This document shows, piece by piece, positions 2,489 through 11,592 of a stretch of DNA of 14,345 nt. Every line of letters starts with the position of its first letter. Positions within the stretch are counted from its first letter, which is position 1. The stretch is from Candidatus Wukongarchaeum yapensis (GTDB lineage Archaea > Asgardarchaeota > Wukongarchaeia > Wukongarchaeales > Wukongarchaeaceae). A model generated the notes under the pieces. The model ran no database searches. It had not been told where the DNA came from and saw only the letters and a program-made list of their open reading frames with translations. The translations under genes and the position numbers were made by a program. Location: positions 1 through 14,345 of the forward strand of contig JAEOSI010000033.1 in assembly GCA_016840425.1 (NCBI GenBank), written 5' to 3'.

Positions 2489-5203
2489 TTAGTTTTTCTT
2501 GTTTTTTAGTGTTGCATGAGCTGCTGCCAATCTTGCAACAGGAACCCTGAACGGTGAACAGCTAACATAATCTAGTCCAACTTGGTAACAGAGCTCTATA
2601 CTTTCAGGATCGCCTCCTTGTTCACCGCAAATTCCTACCTCAAGCTTCGGATCGGCAGCCCTTCCTTCATCAACACACATCTTCATTAGTCGACCTACAC
2701 CATCCTTCTCTATCGTGACAAAAGGATCTGCTTTGAGAATCCCCTTTTTAATATAGAAAGGCAAAAATTTCCCAACATCGTCCCTACTAAATCCCATGGT
2801 CATTTGGTGTAAATCATTCGTTCCAAAAGAGAAGAATTTTGCCCCAGCTTCCACTATTTCACCAGCAGTAAGTGCAGCCCTTGGAACCTCAATCATAGTA
2901 CCTACGAGATATTCAAACTCCACACCTTGCTCCTCCATAACCTCCTTAGCGATCCTATCAACGATCTCTTTTGCCATCGCAAATTCTTTGACCATGCCTA
3001 CCAAAGGTACCATAACTTCAGGAAAAACCTTTTTACCCGCTTTTACATGCTCTATAACCGCCTCAAAAATCGCCCTCGCCTGCATCTCTATGATCTCAGG
3101 ATAAAACAAACAAAGCCTTACTCCCCGAAATCCAAGCATCGGATTAAACTCTTTAAGAGCCCGAACCTTTTCAAGCATAACCAACTTATCTCTCAATTCT
3201 TCATCCGTTTTACCTTCAAGTTTCGCTTCATAGATCTCAGTAACCAAATCAATCTCACTTGGCAAAAACTCATGAAGCGGCGGATCAATCAGCCTAACAA
3301 TCAAAGGCTTATCCCCCGTCTCCTCAAAATTCCCCTTAAAATCTTCCCTTTGAAAGGGCAAAAGCTCCATTACCGCCTTAACCCGTTCCTCCTCATTTTC
3401 AGCCAAGATCATTCTTTGAACTATCGGCAACCTATCTGGCCCAAAAAACATATGCTCAGTCCTACATAATCCCACACCAGTAGCCCCGTAATTCATGGCA
3501 TTCCTTATCTGCTCTGGAATATCTGCATTCGCCTTAACTCCAATCTCGGCTACCTCGTCACACCACTCCAAAAGCACTACTAACTCTTTCGGAAGTTCTT
3601 CAGGAACAAAAATAGGCAGCTCTCCCACGTATACTTTACCAGTAAAACCGTCTAAAGTTATCCAGTCCCGCTCAAAAACCTCTATACCGTTCTCAGAAAC
3701 AAGAACTTTTTGTCCCCCTTTTTTTGTTAACTTCATACCAGACGCTTCAGCTCCCACGATACATCTCTTCCCTATTTGACGTGCAACCAATGCAGCATGA
3801 GAAGTCATTCCTCCTCTCATAGTCAAAATTCCTTTCGAAGCTGCCATACCATGGAAATCATCTGGAGACGTTTCAGGAGCTACCAAAATAGTAGGTAACC
3901 CTTTTTCCTTCGACATCCTTTCAGCAGTATCCGCGTCAAAAGCAACCATGCCCACCGCAGCACCAGGCCCTGCAGGCAACCCTTTACCCAAATAAGTAGC
4001 CGTTAACGTTTGATCACCATCCATATACCGAGCCTTTTCCTCATCTTCCCACGGTATCGCAGGAAAAATACAGTTTTCAATATCCTCAGGAGTTACTCGC
4101 ATAATTGCTTCTTCTTTAGTTATTATTCGCTCCTGATGGAGATCGTGTGCAATTTTTATAGCTGCTTTTCCAGTACGCTTACCACTCCTTGTCTGTAATA
4201 TGTAAAACTCGCTTCGCTCAACTGTAAACTCTATATCTTGAACGTCTTTATAGTGCTTTTCTAAAATCTTACTTGCATTAACTAGTTGTTCATAAACTCT
4301 GGGCATATCACTTGATAATGCACTTACTGGTTTCGGAGTTCTGACACCTGCCACTACGTCTTCTCCTTGTGCTTTAGGCAAATATTCTCCAAAAAATTCA
4401 TCCTCGCCAGAAGCTGGATTACGTGTAAAAACTACGCCGCTAGCACTATCGTTACCCATATTACCAAAAACCATGGCTTGAACGTTTACAGCAGTTCCTA
4501 AATCATGGCTGATCTTATGATAATTCCGATAAGCTATAGCTCTAGGATTATCCCAACTTTCAAAAACAGTCTTAATCGCGGTTTCCAACTGTTCCCAAGG
4601 ATCCTCAGGAAACGGTCGCCCCGTCTCCCTCTCACACAGCTCTTTAAACTCCTTAACAACCTTTTTCAAAACAGCTACAGGCATTTCATGATCATACTTA
4701 ACCCCAACTTCGTCTTTATACTTTTCAAAAATCTCATCAAACTTCTCTCTCTTAATGCTTAAAGCCACATCTCCAAACATCATAACAAAACGACGATAAA
4801 CATCGTAAGTAAATCTTTCATCCTTAGTCTGCTTAAACAAACCCATAACAGTTTCATCATTAAGACCCAAATTCAATATAGTATCCATCATTCCAGGCAT
4901 AGAAATAGCAGCACCACTCCTCACAGAAACCAATAAAGGATTCTCCGCATCTCCAAAAAGTCTACCAAGCTTTTCTTCAACCTTATTCATAGCACTCCTA
5001 ACTTCATTCATCAACCCTTCAGGAAGCGCTTTATTATTATATTCTTTACAAACCTCAGTAGTTATGGTAAAACCAGGAGGTACAGGCAAAGCCAACTGAG
5101 TCATAGTAGCTAAACCAGCCCCCTTACCTCCTAACAATTTCTTATTGGTACCATCACCTTCCTCAAAAAGATAAACCCGTTTTTTTGTTAACTCCTTTTC
5201 CAT
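2489..5203 (-). CDS. ppdK: Pyruvate, phosphate dikinase
   Basis: Motifs LLGGKGAGL, PVPPGFTITT, LVSVRSGAAISMPGMMDTILNLGLN, phospho-His motif GGMTSHAALVAR, GLCRTEHMF, FSFGTND and catalytic-Cys loop GICGE. I placed the start at ATG 5203 because GGAGG (5212-5216) lies just upstream; the ORF track starts at 5218. Confidence 0.97.
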   Translation of the reverse strand: MEKELTKKRVYLFEEGDGTNKKLLGGKGAGLATMTQLALPVPPGFTITTEVCKEYNNKALPEGLMNEVRSAMNKVEEKLGRLFGDAENPLLVSVRSGAAISMPGMMDTILNLGLNDETVMGLFKQTKDERFTYDVYRRFVMMFGDVALSIKREKFDEIFEKYKDEVGVKYDHEMPVAVLKKVVKEFKELCERETGRPFPEDPWEQLETAIKTVFESWDNPRAIAYRNYHKISHDLGTAVNVQAMVFGNMGNDSASGVVFTRNPASGEDEFFGEYLPKAQGEDVVAGVRTPKPVSALSSDMPRVYEQLVNASKILEKHYKDVQDIEFTVERSEFYILQTRSGKRTGKAAIKIAHDLHQERIITKEEAIMRVTPEDIENCIFPAIPWEDEEKARYMDGDQTLTATYLGKGLPAGPGAAVGMVAFDADTAERMSKEKGLPTILVAPETSPDDFHGMAASKGILTMRGGMTSHAALVARQIGKRCIVGAEASGMKLTKKGGQKVLVSENGIEVFERDWITLDGFTGKVYVGELPIFVPEELPKELVVLLEWCDEVAEIGVKANADIPEQIRNAMNYGATGVGLCRTEHMFFGPDRLPIVQRMILAENEEERVKAVMELLPFQREDFKGNFEETGDKPLIVRLIDPPLHEFLPSEIDLVTEIYEAKLEGKTDEELRDKLVMLEKVRALKEFNPMLGFRGVRLCLFYPEIIEMQARAIFEAVIEHVKAGKKVFPEVMVPLVGMVKEFAMAKEIVDRIAKEVMEEQGVEFEYLVGTMIEVPRAALTAGEIVEAGAKFFSFGTNDLHQMTMGFSRDDVGKFLPFYIKKGILKADPFVTIEKDGVGRLMKMCVDEGRAADPKLEVGICGEQGGDPESIELCYQVGLDYVSCSPFRVPVARLAAAHATLKNKKN

Positions 5204-5279
5204 AACCCTAGCCTCCAAGAAAAATAAAATAAATAAAGTATAAATAAAAGAATTATTTTATTAAATTTGTGCTTTTGGG

Positions 5280-5354
5280 AGGGGGCAAGTCGGAACTCAA
5301 GATCCCCTTCATCAATAGAATTCAGAGGGGTCAGAATCATCATTCATGCCCCCT
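5280..5354 (-). ncRNA. Box C/D small guide RNA (predicted tRNA-Leu(CAA) C34 2'-O-methylation guide)
   Basis: Minus strand reads AGGGGGCAUG-A-AUGAUGA-UUCUGACCCCU-CUGA-AUUCUA-UUGAUGA-AGGGGAUCUUGAGUU-CCGA-CUUGCCCCCU. Box C is at 5337-5343, D' at 5322-5325, C' at 5309-5315 and D (CCGA variant) at 5290-5293. A perfect 8-bp GC-rich terminal stem (5280-5287/5347-5354) stands out in an otherwise very AT-rich spacer. Confidence 0.88.
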
Positions 5355-5422: not shown

Positions 5423-7489
5423 TTAAGGGCGATCCAATTTTTCTAAAAACCGGTTTATTTCATCTTTGGCATTTGCTTCCTCATACTCTATAATGAAAAA
5501 TTCTAACTCTTCCGTTTGTTTGTTCTTTTTTACGCGTCCTCTAAGTATGAACTCTTTTCCGAGAAAAGACTGCATAATATCCAAAAAGTTTTCATATGAC
5601 TGTGACCTTTTAATACTTTCATTTGCTTCTTTTGCGGTTATCCCTAAAAGCTTCTCACCAACATCTCCCGTAAAAATAGCCCGTATTCTACCTTTTCCAT
5701 CATCTAAAACTACTGCAAATAGCATTCTTGGATTTGGATCAAGAACTTTTCCATGTTCTCTGCAAACAAATCCTCCTTGCTCTTCCTCTTCAACTTTTTT
5801 AAAACACTGATCACACGCTAGATATACAGGACTCCTATCAAAAACTCTAATTAAGGTGCCTCTTATTTCGCCGAGAACCCCCTCAGACAATTCCGCTATA
5901 GAACCCCTCTCCATCTCCCTACTCTCCTCTTTTTCACTAATAAGCTCTTCAAGCCCAGGTATCTCGCCTCCTTCTCCCTCACTTAACCGTTTAATTTCGC
6001 TAAAATCTCCCAAATGAACCTCAACCATCATGGCCCCTGCTTTCATATACCCGTGGCTTACCTCCAATATGTCGCCTTCTTTCATATCCAATAACTTATC
6101 CACCCAGTCCCCCCAAGCCACTAATCTAGCAACCCCTGTCTCATCGCCAATTTTTAAACTGAAAACCTTTCCCTCCGAACCATCTGCCCTAACAAACTCC
6201 CTTACATCGAAAATTTCCACCACCCTACCGATAAGATTCACATCCTCTGCTGTAGTTCCAATCTCTCCTATCTTAACCATTCTCAACGGCTCTACATCCA
6301 AATCCTCAGAAACAACCTCTATCTCACACCGACCCCCCACACGAACCTCCAAACCCATAAACCCCTCCCTCACATAAGCACCTTTCAAAACAACAACATC
6401 CCCCTCTCCAACATTAAATTCCCCTATCTTATCCCCCCAAACAGTCGCCTTAATAATCCCTGTATCATCACCAACAAGCGTACTAAGAACTTGACCTGAA
6501 CTTCCATCTTTCCTATGAAAAACTCTTTCATCTCCTCTTTTTAACACTTTAAATTTCAATTCCACCCCATTCATCCCCTCTTTCAAATCACAAACCTTTA
6601 CCCGACCAACCCCCATAAAAGTTTCAGGCGCTTCAACTATTCTCCCCAAAACTATTTTATCCGTTTTGCTAACCCTAGTCCTCTTACCCACATGAATCTC
6701 AGTAGAATCTCCTAAACCACTACGCGTATAACCCCCCTCGATTAAAACAGTATCTCCTTCCTTAAAATCGAAAATTTCATCAACACGCTCATCCCAAAAA
6801 GTTACCCTAACAATCCCCGTCTCATCCCCTATCCTAATCGAAGCAACTCGCCCCATAGAACCGTCCTTCTTAGTATAACTTGCAACCTTGCCTATTTCAG
6901 TAACCTTGCCCACAGTATCAATATCCCGCATACCAGGATCTAAATCCACAACCCTATAACCCCTACCCGGCTCAGGAAACTTAGACACATCGACATCTTC
7001 AGGATTATGCTCAATACTCCCCGAACTACCCAAATGTATCTCCAAAACCCCCTCTCTGCCCTCCCTAGTCACCCCCGAAACTACCCTCACTATATCCCCT
7101 CTCTCAAAACCTTCTATCCTCCTAACCTGCTCATTCCACAAAACCAAAACTGCTTTCCCAGAATTATCCGCCAATAAAATATTAGCAACAACCCCCAATC
7201 CCCCATCAGACCTCGCAAAATATACAGGCGCATAAATTTTCATAATACGTGCTTCAACAGTTATATTACTTAAACCAGGCACCAAATCTCCCATTTTTAA
7301 ACTTTCAGAAACACTTCCCAGTATATCTACACCCAACTCTTGAGCGACAATATGGGCAGCACCATCCTCAGAAACTAACTCATTAAGTTCCTTCCTTTTC
7401 TCCAAAATCAACTCCCAAACCTCATCCTTAGACTTCCCAGTTTTCTCACAAATCTTCCTTATTTTTTCCTCCAAATCAGGATCAGTCAA
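5423..7489 (-). CDS. rpa: Replication protein A (multi-OB-fold ssDNA-binding protein with Zn-binding OB)
   Basis: 688 aa. Short N-terminal helical domain followed by five OB-like repeats (DNSGKAVLVLWN, DETGIVRVTFWD, DDTGIIKATVWG, DETGVARLVAWG, DDGKGRIRAIFTG). The last repeat carries CDQC-x13-CREH. TTG start with SD-like GGTGGTGG. Confidence 0.92.
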   Translation of the reverse strand: MTDPDLEEKIRKICEKTGKSKDEVWELILEKRKELNELVSEDGAAHIVAQELGVDILGSVSESLKMGDLVPGLSNITVEARIMKIYAPVYFARSDGGLGVVANILLADNSGKAVLVLWNEQVRRIEGFERGDIVRVVSGVTREGREGVLEIHLGSSGSIEHNPEDVDVSKFPEPGRGYRVVDLDPGMRDIDTVGKVTEIGKVASYTKKDGSMGRVASIRIGDETGIVRVTFWDERVDEIFDFKEGDTVLIEGGYTRSGLGDSTEIHVGKRTRVSKTDKIVLGRIVEAPETFMGVGRVKVCDLKEGMNGVELKFKVLKRGDERVFHRKDGSSGQVLSTLVGDDTGIIKATVWGDKIGEFNVGEGDVVVLKGAYVREGFMGLEVRVGGRCEIEVVSEDLDVEPLRMVKIGEIGTTAEDVNLIGRVVEIFDVREFVRADGSEGKVFSLKIGDETGVARLVAWGDWVDKLLDMKEGDILEVSHGYMKAGAMMVEVHLGDFSEIKRLSEGEGGEIPGLEELISEKEESREMERGSIAELSEGVLGEIRGTLIRVFDRSPVYLACDQCFKKVEEEEQGGFVCREHGKVLDPNPRMLFAVVLDDGKGRIRAIFTGDVGEKLLGITAKEANESIKRSQSYENFLDIMQSFLGKEFILRGRVKKNKQTEELEFFIIEYEEANAKDEINRFLEKLDRP

Positions 7490-8784: not shown

Positions 8785-8880
8785 GCCGCCGTAGCTCAGT
8801 TGGTTAGAGCATCTGCCTTGTATAAAACCACAACGAAAAAAGAAAGCAGAGGGTCGAGGGTTCGAATCCCTCCGGCGGCT
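8785..8880 (+). tRNA. tRNA-Thr(UGU) with 22-nt intron at 37/38 (intron 8823-8844)
   Basis: Acceptor GCCGCCG/CGGCGGC, D arm GCTC-AGTTGGTTA-GAGC, anticodon stem TCTGC/GCAGA, loop CT-TGT-A|A, T arm GAGGG-TTCGAAT-CCCTC, discriminator U73. CCA is not encoded. Confidence 0.95.
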
Positions 8881-8909: not shown

Positions 8910-9034
8910 GGGTGAGTAGTCTAGATTGGTATGATGCCAGCCTCGGGAAATCCATCTTCCACTCCCTATTTTTAAAAAATAATAGGATTCGGGTAAGCTG
9001 GTGGTCGTGGGTTCAAATCCCACCTCACCCACCA
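8910..9034 (+). tRNA. tRNA-Pro(CGG) with 48-nt intron at 37/38 (intron 8948-8995), CCA encoded
   Basis: Acceptor GGGTGAG/CTCACCC, anticodon stem CCAGC/GCTGG, loop CT-CGG-G|A, T arm GTGGG-TTCAAAT-CCCAC, A73-CCA. Strict BHB: CTCG/CGGG central helix, two 3-nt bulges and outer helix AATCC/GGATT. Confidence 0.95.
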
Positions 9035-9336: not shown

Positions 9337-11592
9337 ATGCGCGTATTTCCACGAATCAGTAAGTTAGTCGTAAAAAACTACAAAGCAGTAATTCTCATCT
9401 GGCTAGCCATTGGAATATTTGGATTTATGGCATCACAAAGATTAGCCGACGTTCTCCTTTACGAAGAGGAAGGCGGCTATGAAGGGCTAGAAAGCGTTCA
9501 AGCCAGTGAAATAATCGAATCAGAATTTCCTGGAAACGAAGGAGGAAGCATGATCATAATAGTACACGTAAACGATAATCACACCATATCCGCTCTTTAT
9601 GATTACACGTTCGCCTTAAAATCGTATGTTGAAAATAATGAGATTGTTGAAAGTACCATTTTTAACCCAAGCGACCCTCAATTTGCAACAAACCACACCT
9701 ACCTGCTAATGGTATATCTTAAAGTTCCAGACGATGATGATAAAGCCTATGATCTTGTTAGAGACATTCGTAGCGAAGCAGAAGGGCTTCAAAAAGACCC
9801 CTCTCTTGTCCCCCCTGACATGATCGATGATTTGACTACCTATGTAACTGGTGCAGCAGCTATGAGCACAGATACACGGGAAGCCTCACAAGAAGACCTT
9901 CAACGTATAGATACAATCACTATAATCCTTGTAGCTATCGTTTTAATAGCCATCTTTAGAAGCGCTGTTTCTCCCCTTCTCCCCCTAATCTCTATAGGAA
10001 TAGCAATAATAGCAACACGAGGAGTTCTATGGTTCATAGCAGAAAATATAACCGATATACCTTACGAAGCTCTACACTTTCTCACTGTGATAGTCATGGG
10101 CATAGGAGCTGACTATTGTTTATTTTTCCTTTCACGCTTTAAAGAAGAGTTGATGAAAGGCGCTTCAAAAGAAGAAGCAGTAACCATCGTTGTTGAACGT
10201 ACAGGAAAAACGATTGTAAGTTCAGGCATCACAATAGCTGTGGCTTTTGGAAGTTTTATGATAAGCGACATGACATTTCTACGTGGAATGGGATTGACAT
10301 TAGCCATTGGTGTAATCCTTGGAACCCTTGCTTCCTTAACCTTTATACCTGCCCTCTTCATGCTCTTAGGCATAAAAGTTTTCTGGCCCAGAAAAATCAC
10401 AGCAGAAGAGATAAAAAACCATGATGAAAATCAACTCGGCATTCTAGGAAGAAGAACCCGATGGGTAATGAGACACGCACCAGCAGTACTCATAGCAAGC
10501 CTAGTCATATGCTCGCCACTCATATACCAAATGGTACTCTTTGACCCATCCCATGACTTTTTCGAAATGATGCCCGAAGACCTAGAAAGTATCCAAGGAT
10601 TTAACGTTTTAACAGACGAATGGTCTGCAGGAAAAATCCTCCCAACAACAGTCGTACTCCAAATAAACGGCAACCTAACAGAAGAAGAAAACTATGAAAA
10701 AGCAGAAACCATATGGTACAAACTAAACGCATCATCCGACACAAGCTTTGTCTACGGGTTTACAGCCCCAGAAGGACAACCCTTAAACTACACCGTTTTT
10801 TCACATCTTCCCCAAGAAGACAAAACAGCAATCCTTAACCAGTATGTAAGCGCAGATCACGATACAGCAAAATACATCGTAGTCCTTGCTTATGATCCCT
10901 ACTCAAACGATGGAATGGACGCTATAGACAACCTAAGAAACAGCATTGAAGAAGTTAAACAAAATGAAAACGGTCTTGAAAACTTTGAAATCCTCGTAGG
11001 CGGTCCCACTGCAGAAATGTCCGACGGCAGTAGAAAAGTCTTTGAAGAGTTCGAAACCATGCAAATAGTTCTCATAATCGCAATATTACTAATCCTAATC
11101 ATTTTACTGGGCAGCATAACCCTATCAGTAAAACAAATCCTAACCATACTTCTAAGCGTAGCCATGACAATAGGAATAGTAACCCTAGTCTTTCAAACCC
11201 TCCAAGACCAACCAGTAATCTTCTTCCTCGAAATAATGATCTTCCTCGTACTCATGGGCTTAGGGACAGATTACAACATTTTCCTACTTTCAAGAGTACG
11301 CGAAGAATACGACCGAGGCAGAGAAGAATTAGAATCCATGGTTTACGGCGTAGACAAAACAGGGATAGTAATAACATCCGCCGCAGCCATCATGGCAGCA
11401 GCCTTCGGATCACTAATGCTCAGCAACCTTTTAATGATGCGCGAATTCGGCTTCGCCCTCTTCGTAGCGGTAATCATAGACGCAAGCTTCGTACGCCTAA
11501 TCTTGGTACCTGCTATATACCGCTGTCTTAAGGGATACAACTATTGGCCAAAATACCTCAGCGACAAATTCAAATTTATATCCCACGAATAA
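9337..11592 (+). CDS. MMPL/RND-family membrane transporter
   Basis: Two internal repeats, each with one TM, a large extramembrane loop and about 5 TMs. Conserved GIGADYCLFFLSRFKEE and GLGTDYNIFLLSRVREE (paired Asp-Tyr motifs). I prefer ATG 9337 over GTG 9325 because AGGTG (9323-9327) is placed as its SD. Confidence 0.92.
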   Translation: MRVFPRISKLVVKNYKAVILIWLAIGIFGFMASQRLADVLLYEEEGGYEGLESVQASEIIESEFPGNEGGSMIIIVHVNDNHTISALYDYTFALKSYVENNEIVESTIFNPSDPQFATNHTYLLMVYLKVPDDDDKAYDLVRDIRSEAEGLQKDPSLVPPDMIDDLTTYVTGAAAMSTDTREASQEDLQRIDTITIILVAIVLIAIFRSAVSPLLPLISIGIAIIATRGVLWFIAENITDIPYEALHFLTVIVMGIGADYCLFFLSRFKEELMKGASKEEAVTIVVERTGKTIVSSGITIAVAFGSFMISDMTFLRGMGLTLAIGVILGTLASLTFIPALFMLLGIKVFWPRKITAEEIKNHDENQLGILGRRTRWVMRHAPAVLIASLVICSPLIYQMVLFDPSHDFFEMMPEDLESIQGFNVLTDEWSAGKILPTTVVLQINGNLTEEENYEKAETIWYKLNASSDTSFVYGFTAPEGQPLNYTVFSHLPQEDKTAILNQYVSADHDTAKYIVVLAYDPYSNDGMDAIDNLRNSIEEVKQNENGLENFEILVGGPTAEMSDGSRKVFEEFETMQIVLIIAILLILIILLGSITLSVKQILTILLSVAMTIGIVTLVFQTLQDQPVIFFLEIMIFLVLMGLGTDYNIFLLSRVREEYDRGREELESMVYGVDKTGIVITSAAAIMAAAFGSLMLSNLLMMREFGFALFVAVIIDASFVRLILVPAIYRCLKGYNYWPKYLSDKFKFISHE

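Follow-up and report, generated by a model that had tools for sequence, protein, structure and literature searches.

The sRNA Gene and Its Surroundings

The window analyzed here, a stretch of 14,345 nucleotides from the Candidatus Wukongarchaeum yapensis genome (G000), contains a 75-nt element with the layout of a box C/D sRNA gene (5280-5354, minus strand), flanked by an RPA-like multi-OB gene (5423-7489) and the pyruvate phosphate dikinase (PPDK) gene (2489-5218), all on the minus strand. The product of the RPA-like gene, 688 amino acids long, combines multiple OB folds with a C-terminal Replication factor-A domain and resembles the eukaryotic RPA large subunit. The element occurs once in the genome and scores 62.2 bits with R1, a sequence-only covariance model built from the sRNA.

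Read along the minus strand, the element begins with the 5' strand of a terminal stem (AGGGGGCAUG, 5345-5354), which pairs with the 3' strand (CUUGCCCCCU, 5280-5289) over 10 bp with one U-U mismatch. An unpaired A (5344) separates the stem from box C (AUGAUGA, 5337-5343), the TGA..GA core of which is invariant or nearly so in the alignment of homologues; A5344, A5343 and U5342 form a 3-nt K-turn bulge. Then follow the 11-nt D' spacer or guide (UUCUGACCCCU, 5326-5336), whose core UGACCC(C) is kept across the phylum, box D' (CUGA, 5322-5325), a conserved block of columns in the alignment, a K-loop from D' to C' (AUUCUAU, 5315-5321), which differs among homologues in length and sequence, and box C' (UGAUGA, 5309-5314), read from the sequence and the alignment. 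The 15-nt D spacer (AGGGGAUCUUGAGUU, 5294-5308), with a core GAUCUUGAGU complementary to plus-strand positions 5295-5304, leads to box D (5290-5293), read from the sequence as the variant CCGA, which differs from CUGA by a U-to-C change at position 2 and retains the GA.

Direct reading of the minus strand from 5354 to 5280 confirmed the original prediction in that the four boxes stand in the correct order and the K-turn stem contains one U-U mismatch and an AAU bulge; the D'/C' K-loop that it had proposed (CUGA-AUUCUAU-UGAUGA) is present as well and is kept in the alignment. Box C (of the RUGAUGA type, close to the 5' end), box D (close to the 3' end), the 3-nt bulge and the closing stem together provide the K-turn characteristic of archaeal C/D sRNAs. 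Spacers between the box pairs of these RNAs are usually about 12 nt long. The D' spacer fits this length. The D spacer exceeds it, here and in most homologues, with a 12-nt reading permitted in family f4; its pairing with tRNA is confined to the 3' 10-12 of its 15 nt. At its 3' end the D' spacer has CCCCU, complementary to the AGGGG that opens the D spacer, and pairing between the two would lengthen the helix beside the K-loop (5309-5336, minus strand); such pairing is also possible in the f10 and f16 homologues, most others lacking it.

A strict C/D grammar gave two matches over the 2.16 Mb of the genome; the reversed sequence, used as a control, gave none. The other site (G000:C165:9008-9056, minus strand) has the structure AUGAUGA-14 nt-AUGA-GAU-UGAUGA-11 nt-UUGA and lies upstream of the 16S rRNA gene at a distance of about 4 kb. 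In Rfam, no family scored above threshold, the best match being snoZ266 with 26.6 bits (E 0.32) against a threshold of 43, so the sRNA falls outside every curated Rfam family; matches at its exact coordinates, all sub-threshold, came from C/D-box families only (snoZ266, snoR26, SNORD125, and sR23).

Host Genome, sRNP Proteins and tRNA Genes

The Wukongarchaeum genome comprises 277 contigs with 38% G+C and contains archaeal 16S and 23S rRNA genes, intron-rich tRNA genes, and a full-length actin gene (444.6 bits). The host proteins of a C/D sRNA are encoded: fibrillarin (PF01269, 321 bits) and Nop5 (PF01798, 228 bits) are adjacent on contig C172, and L7Ae (PF01248, 90.7 bits) is on contig C125.

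Standard tRNA finders miss or misname the tRNA-Leu genes of this genome. As ARAGORN with introns misread or missed most tRNAs, these genes were located by pattern search; the tRNA-Leu(CAA) gene, for instance, was called tRNA-Arg by ARAGORN and was missed by the Rfam tRNA search. All five tRNA-Leu genes carry introns (C89:3462-3613; C189:13116-13260; C70, minus strand, about 4090; C268, minus strand, about 11243; C123, minus strand, about 15207), with four of the genes sharing an intron position in the D loop; tRNA-Leu(CAA) is interrupted once more, in the variable arm. Two intron-bearing tRNA genes are also found in the window itself (8785-8880 and 8910-9031, plus strand), interrupted around the anticodon by introns of about 24 and 52 nt; they score 65.4 and 53.3 bits with the Rfam tRNA model, and neither was found by ARAGORN without the intron option. 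Two copies of tRNA(CAU) are located 750 nt apart at locus L221 (G000:C259:9500-10700; genes at about 9611-9758 and 10360-10507), with introns on both sides of the anticodon loop (after A31/C32 and after A38). The second copy differs in its 5' part and may be degenerate or split.

Distribution of the sRNA Family

BLAST comparison of the region with relatives yielded a copy of 90% identity in the same genus and, less strongly, matches spread over many of the phylum's families. The R1 search extended the family to 128 of the 151 sampled genomes of the phylum, representing 48 of 52 genera, usually with one copy per genome, and gave nothing significant in five non-Asgard archaeal genomes of the Thermoplasmatota/Methanosarcinales type. 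Invariant blocks of the alignment are box C, the D' guide core, and the 10-nt D-guide core GAUCUUGAGU. Box D occurs as CUGA, CCGA, UUGA, AUGA, AGGA, or CGGA, the final GA being constant. The terminal stems diverge in sequence and retain pairing, with a mean of -10.7 kcal/mol for a gene's own flanks vs. -5.7 for mismatched partners.

The element is flanked on both sides by minus-strand genes, with 77 nt separating it from the PPDK start codon downstream, and its fold is only mildly better than that of shuffled sequences (z = -1.98); both features would suit a structured leader of the PPDK mRNA, or a terminator belonging to the RPA-like gene upstream, rather than an sRNA gene. Such an origin is highly improbable, as homologues occupy 28 other loci with neither PPDK nor RPA alongside, the conserved parts are the four boxes and both guides and not a hairpin, and fibrillarin, Nop5 and L7Ae are all encoded in the genome. 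Syntenic homologues, which the original prediction had proposed to look for, were found as far as the same-genus genome is concerned, which shares the PPDK/RPA neighborhood, and not at the other loci. Since this context is shared only within the genus, the sRNA appears to be an independent gene and not a leader or terminator. The boxes and the occurrence in 128 genomes thus confirm, at the level of sequence comparison, that the element 5354-5280 is a genuine, previously unannotated, stand-alone box C/D sRNA gene, and the actin gene together with the archaeal rRNAs agrees with the assignment of its host to Asgard archaea, both as originally predicted.

D Guide and the Wobble Base of tRNA-Leu(CAA)

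In archaeal box C/D sRNAs, the guide forms about 9 or more base pairs with a stable RNA, and according to the rule for these RNAs the modified base pairs with the fifth nucleotide upstream of box D or D' (N+5). The plus strand at 5294-5308 reads AACTCAAGATCCCCT, with 5298 being the fifth base from box D; both had been given correctly in the original prediction, which took this complement of the D guide for the anticodon loop of tRNA-Leu(CAA). The tRNA-Leu(CAA) gene of the same genome (G000:C89:3462-3613) does carry the string ACUCAAGAUC within an unbroken anticodon arm, CCAGA-CUCAAGA-UCUGG. It forms 10 contiguous Watson-Crick pairs with the D guide, from A31 to C40, extended by G.U pairs at positions 30 and 41, and the G at 5298 faces C34, so that the wobble base is placed at N+5. 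A match of at least 10 contiguous nucleotides around C34 had been set beforehand as the test of the target. The arm foretold, GGGGA-CUCAAGA-UCCCCU, differs from the actual one and turned out to be that of Pyrococcus. ACUCAAGAUC is present in the tRNA-Leu(CAA) genes of four other genomes as well, with introns elsewhere.

The statement that the guide could act only on intron-less or already spliced tRNA does not apply here: the two introns of tRNA-Leu(CAA) are non-canonical, being inserted in the D loop and the variable arm, and with none at 37/38 the D-guide target is contiguous in the precursor. In genome G016 (L031), the tRNA-Leu(CAA) gene has an intron directly after position 40/41, immediately 3' of the 10-nt target, which stays contiguous. 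Covariation of the guide with its tRNA among homologues, another expectation, was not seen for the D guide, because both sequences are invariant.

By its boxes and the host proteins, the sRNA would assemble with L7Ae, Nop5 and fibrillarin into a trans-acting archaeal box C/D sRNP, whose D guide would pair with positions 30/31-40/41 of tRNA-Leu(CAA) and direct 2'-O-methylation of the wobble C34. The prediction of Cm34 follows from the N+5 rule and from the experimentally characterized sR47 of Pyrococcus abyssi, reportedly described by Clouet-d'Orval in 2001 and Nolivos in 2005. The Pyrococcus precedent given in the original prediction proved correct, as sR47 methylates C34 of tRNA-Leu(CAA) in vitro (PMC3413156, PMC5558902, PMC7994747). 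The tRNA-Leu(CAA) C34 site is also listed for P. furiosus (PMC7668247), and Pyrococcus has four wobble sRNAs, for Leu-CAA, Leu-UAA, Met, and Trp (PMC7994747).

The Wukongarchaeum sRNA resembles sR47 at the level of guide and target, both being stand-alone C/D sRNAs with a D guide directed at the anticodon loop of tRNA-Leu(CAA) for C34, with the identical target string ACUCAAGAUC as in the sR47 substrate oligonucleotide (PMC3413156). It even has a GGGG 5' of GAUC that matches the UCCCC of the Pyrococcus arm. It differs from sR47 in belonging to the Asgard phylum, in the CCGA variant of box D, and in the 15-nt D spacer. The predicted task of the D guide is thus already known in archaea, and is here extended to the Asgard phylum, where it is nearly universal.

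Candidate Partners of the D' Guide within the Genus

As the D' core UGACCC(C) is conserved phylum-wide, a target is to be expected for it as well. A genome-wide list of D' complements in G000 that allowed G.U pairs comprised 185 matches and was too noisy for direct use; after filtering for a non-coding, G+C-rich context, two tRNA-Leu introns and a 23S rRNA site were left. Two non-coding loci (G000:C7:3389, plus strand, and C91:2141, minus strand) share a repeat of about 100 nt ending in AGGGGUUAGAG and resemble copies of a mobile or repeated element. A target in the D loop, T arm or anticodon stem of mature tRNAs was ruled out on sequence, and no D' target was found in 16S rRNA.

In pre-tRNA-Leu(CAA), the D' guide forms 9 bp with GGGUCAGAA in the D-loop intron (intron 1), 18 nt upstream of the D-guide site, and in pre-tRNA-Leu(UAA) it forms 8 bp with GGGUCAGA in the homologous intron. 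Among the five tRNA-Leu genes of the genome the motif is restricted to these two, the introns of the other three lacking it. Pairing with the tRNA(CAU) intron of the same genus (GGGGUUUAGA) is interrupted, consisting of 6+3 bp with a one-base bulge. A G-to-A change in the D' guide of the same-genus genome G001 disrupts the duplexes with the two tRNA-Leu introns and adds one pair to that with the tRNA(CAU) intron. To judge from these duplexes, the relationship between D' guide and introns is looser in the genus of Wukongarchaeum than elsewhere in the phylum.

The 23S site is the hairpin loop CUCGGGUCAGAACUCCGAG of domain V (about 2421), where the D' guide of G000 would methylate the G before U. 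The loop sequence CGGGUCAGAA does form 9 contiguous Watson-Crick pairs with the G000 guide, and the hairpin sequence GGGUCAGAA recurs in f3, f7, and f18, giving 8-9 bp with the guides of these families. However, a site matching the genome's own guide is lacking in G013 (f13), G025 (f4), and G074 (f6): the hairpin reads GAGACAGAA in G013 and GGGACAGAA in G025, and none homologous to it was located in G074. The G013 guide stays UCUGACCCC despite the altered hairpin; guide and 23S rRNA do not covary; a C of the 23S rRNA stands opposite the conserved fourth C of the guide; and the change in the G001 guide breaks the pairing while the 23S rRNA is unchanged. The absence of matching sites in the three genomes led us to reject 23S rRNA as the conserved target of D', and we regard it as an unlikely one in G000.

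The D' guide of G000 might also be an orphan, the tRNA-Leu intron and 23S matches being chance occurrences or relics and the D guide alone being functional. The disruptive G-to-A change in G001 and the bulge in the pairing with the genome's own tRNA(CAU) intron would agree with this, as would the Pyrobaculum sRNAs targeting tRNAs, which usually have one orphan guide according to PMC7994747, citing PMC6009581. It nevertheless appears improbable: two of the 14 genomic copies of GGGTCAGAA fall in stable-RNA genes, which make up about 0.2% of the sequence, the motif sits precisely in the CAA and UAA tRNA-Leu introns, and the guide covaries with introns phylum-wide (see the next section). The orphan reading was first suggested by the exact 10-mer target GGGGTCAGAG, since its matches in f3 and f13 were just the sRNA gene itself and coding sites.

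Covariation of the D' Guide with tRNA Introns

A 9-mer search of three complete or near-complete genomes located GGGGUCAGA in the D-loop intron of tRNA-Leu(UAA) in an f7 genome and in the intron after A38 of tRNA(CAU) in f7 and f3. The latter tRNA is probably the elongator tRNA-Met, the anticodon CAU alone leaving tRNA-Ile2 as an alternative. A phylum-wide pattern search with ACUCAUAAUC...UCYGG then revealed the tRNA(CAU) intron across many families, the motif being similarly placed within it, and the D-loop intron of tRNA-Leu(UAA) carries the motif in f1, f7, and f18. In tRNA-Leu(CAA), which matches the D guide perfectly, the motif is absent outside the genus of Wukongarchaeum. The motif thus sits in two non-homologous introns, in the D loop of tRNA-Leu(UAA) and at position 38/39 of tRNA(CAU). 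Among eight tRNA(CAU) loci taken together with their flanks, the Rfam tRNA model recognized five (f4, f13, f17, and two of f19) as tRNA genes, each with a long insertion located at the anticodon arm.

Guide and intron change together from family to family. The pair UCUGACCCC/GGGGUCAGA (guide/intron) is found in f3, f7, f13, and f18. Family f9 has UCUGACCCAA/UUGGGUCAGA, where CCCAA faces UUGGG, and also CCCAU/AUGGG; f19 has GUCUGGCCUU/AAGGCCAGAC; f17 has UUCGGCCCU/AGGGCCGAA and AGUCGGCCUU/AAGGUCGACU; f6 has AAUGACCCC/GGGGUCAUU and UAUGACCCC/GGGGUCAUA; and f4 has UCUAGCCC/GGGCUAGA, UCUAGCCCUUU/AAAGGGCUAGA, and UCUAACCC/GGGUUAGA. The f19 guides pair best with f19 introns (10-12), with which the majority guides pair poorly (4-6).

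When the 5' part of each sRNA was compared with the tRNA(CAU) intron of its own genome, the longest complement fell inside the D' spacer in 33 of 35 genomes, a count that treats related, non-independent genomes as separate and draws on a biased intron sample, as the searches required either the ACUCAUAAUC...UCYGG exon context or, in f4 and f6, the expected motif itself. The D'-spacer duplexes end 0-2 nt before box D' and consist of 7-12 contiguous bp, with 9 bp reached in 27 of the 33. The two exceptions are genomes of Wukongarchaeum's genus, in which the best-scoring runs are spurious and fall elsewhere than in the D' spacer. Taking the best runs of all genomes, 29 of 35 reach 9 bp vs. 2.9% of shuffled introns, and 24 distinct guide/intron duplexes occur. 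The D' guide hence tracks a tRNA-intron motif of 9-12 nt through many compensatory changes in at least ten families, and this compensatory covariation indicates that the predicted D'-intron pairing is under selection.

Predicted Docking on Unspliced Precursors

The pairing of the D' guide with an intron points to action on the precursor. The nucleotide at N+5 of D' always lies opposite an intron nucleotide, which is not the homologous one in f4, f17, and f19, being shifted there relative to the majority; this suggests that what is conserved is the pairing and not one particular methylated position. In tRNA-Leu(UAA), the anticodon loop ACUUAAGAUC matches the D guide with a G.U pair at position 34, and that of tRNA(CAU), ACUCAUAAUC, matches it at 8 of 10 positions. 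The wobble bases of tRNA-Leu(UAA) and the elongator tRNA-Met are C/D-guided in Pyrococcus (PMC7994747).

We therefore consider docking the most likely function of the D'-intron pairing. The D' guide would dock the sRNP on the intron motif of unspliced pre-tRNA(CAU) and pre-tRNA-Leu(UAA), and also of pre-tRNA-Leu(CAA) in Wukongarchaeum's own genus, bringing the D guide onto the imperfectly matched anticodon loop of tRNA-Leu(UAA) or tRNA(CAU). One sRNA could then serve three wobble sites that are handled by three separate sRNAs in Pyrococcus, and methylation would be ordered before splicing. From the layout of the sRNA, a single precursor strand could reach both guides, with a linker of roughly 6-20 nt around the C'/D' end for tRNA(CAU) and of 17-18 nt around the C/D end for tRNA-Leu. 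Docking needs a D guide that works with a G.U pair at N+5 (Leu-UAA) or with two mismatches (tRNA(CAU)), contrary to the Watson-Crick pair that published work requires at N+5, as cited in PMC6009581. Crude searches of G000 found neither a separate sRNA guiding Leu-UAA nor a guide perfectly matching the CAU loop.

Possibly, though with clearly lower probability, the D' guide acts canonically, 2'-O-methylating an intron nucleotide, or holds the intron as a chaperone or splicing timer, with no role at the wobble position of tRNA(CAU) and tRNA-Leu(UAA). In every family the N+5 rule does place the target nucleotide within the intron, and by opening the intron hairpin a bound D' guide would be in competition with the splicing fold, as read from the sequences of L204 and L268; besides, dual guides binding close to each other have been proposed as rRNA folding chaperones (PMC7994747, PMC4644070). 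Yet the non-homologous N+5 nucleotides of f4, f17, and f19 do not fit a canonical target, and the presence of the motif in two non-homologous introns of precisely those tRNAs that have D-guide-like loops and are C/D-guided in Pyrococcus (PMC7994747) would be left unexplained. Overall, the sequence evidence is best explained by an sRNA that guides Cm34 of tRNA-Leu(CAA) and pairs through D' with a tRNA-intron motif, likely for docking, and we hold this reading with good confidence.

Relation to Known Systems

In Euryarchaeota, a box C/D RNA formed by the intron of pre-tRNA-Trp (Haloferax, Pyrococcus sR50) guides the formation of Cm34 and Um39. There, as predicted for Wukongarchaeum, wobble methylation of the precursor is linked to a tRNA intron and a C/D RNP, and the guide duplex excludes the splicing fold, as it would in the Asgard precursors. 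Unlike the pre-tRNA-Trp intron, which is itself the guide, the Asgard intron would be the target or docking motif of a guide encoded elsewhere. According to reviews, the intron of tRNA-Trp is the sole one in archaea that takes part in modification (PMC4090602, PMC11408192). Introns used as landing sites by a trans-acting guide would, if true, add a second and different case.

Wobble methylation of elongator tRNA-Met is guided by sR-tMet in Haloferax volcanii (Joardar 2011; listed in PMC4033218), which produces Cm34 on the intron-containing precursor, and by SNORD97/SCARNA97 in humans (PMC6601510). These guides pair across C34, whereas the Asgard D' duplex is intronic and follows the anticodon loop at a distance of roughly 6-20 nt. 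A second duplex formed with one substrate, regarded as helping its binding or folding, is also known from the accessory pairing of eukaryotic box C/D snoRNAs and from archaeal dual guides binding within 100 nt on rRNA (PMC4644070, PMC6009581); in contrast to these rRNA cases, the second site in Asgard archaea is a tRNA intron that is later removed. Archaeal sRNAs targeting tRNAs are described as having one orphan guide (PMC7994747). In the literature on tRNA introns and archaeal C/D sRNAs we found no description of a second guide pairing with tRNA introns, and nothing on such pairing by the D' guide of sR47.

The new part is thus the co-evolution of the D' guide with a tRNA-intron motif, the task of the D guide being known. 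Why archaeal and eukaryotic tRNA genes retain introns is a long-standing question. The co-evolution hints that introns may be landing pads for modification machinery, and we tentatively propose that Asgard tRNA introns contain a motif under selection for docking of the sRNA's second guide and might be kept for recruiting this machinery, although we rate this as rather less than an even chance. The finding is relevant, too, to elongator tRNA-Met of humans, in which C/D-guided Cm34 has persisted (PMC6601510).

In several genomes the genes for the sRNA, a motif-bearing tRNA(CAU) and/or a motif-bearing tRNA-Leu(UAA) are located within 0.5-8 kb of each other on one contig, for example at G050:C193:3596-3644 and 4091-4129, and also on G027:C356, G046:C104, and G069:C110.
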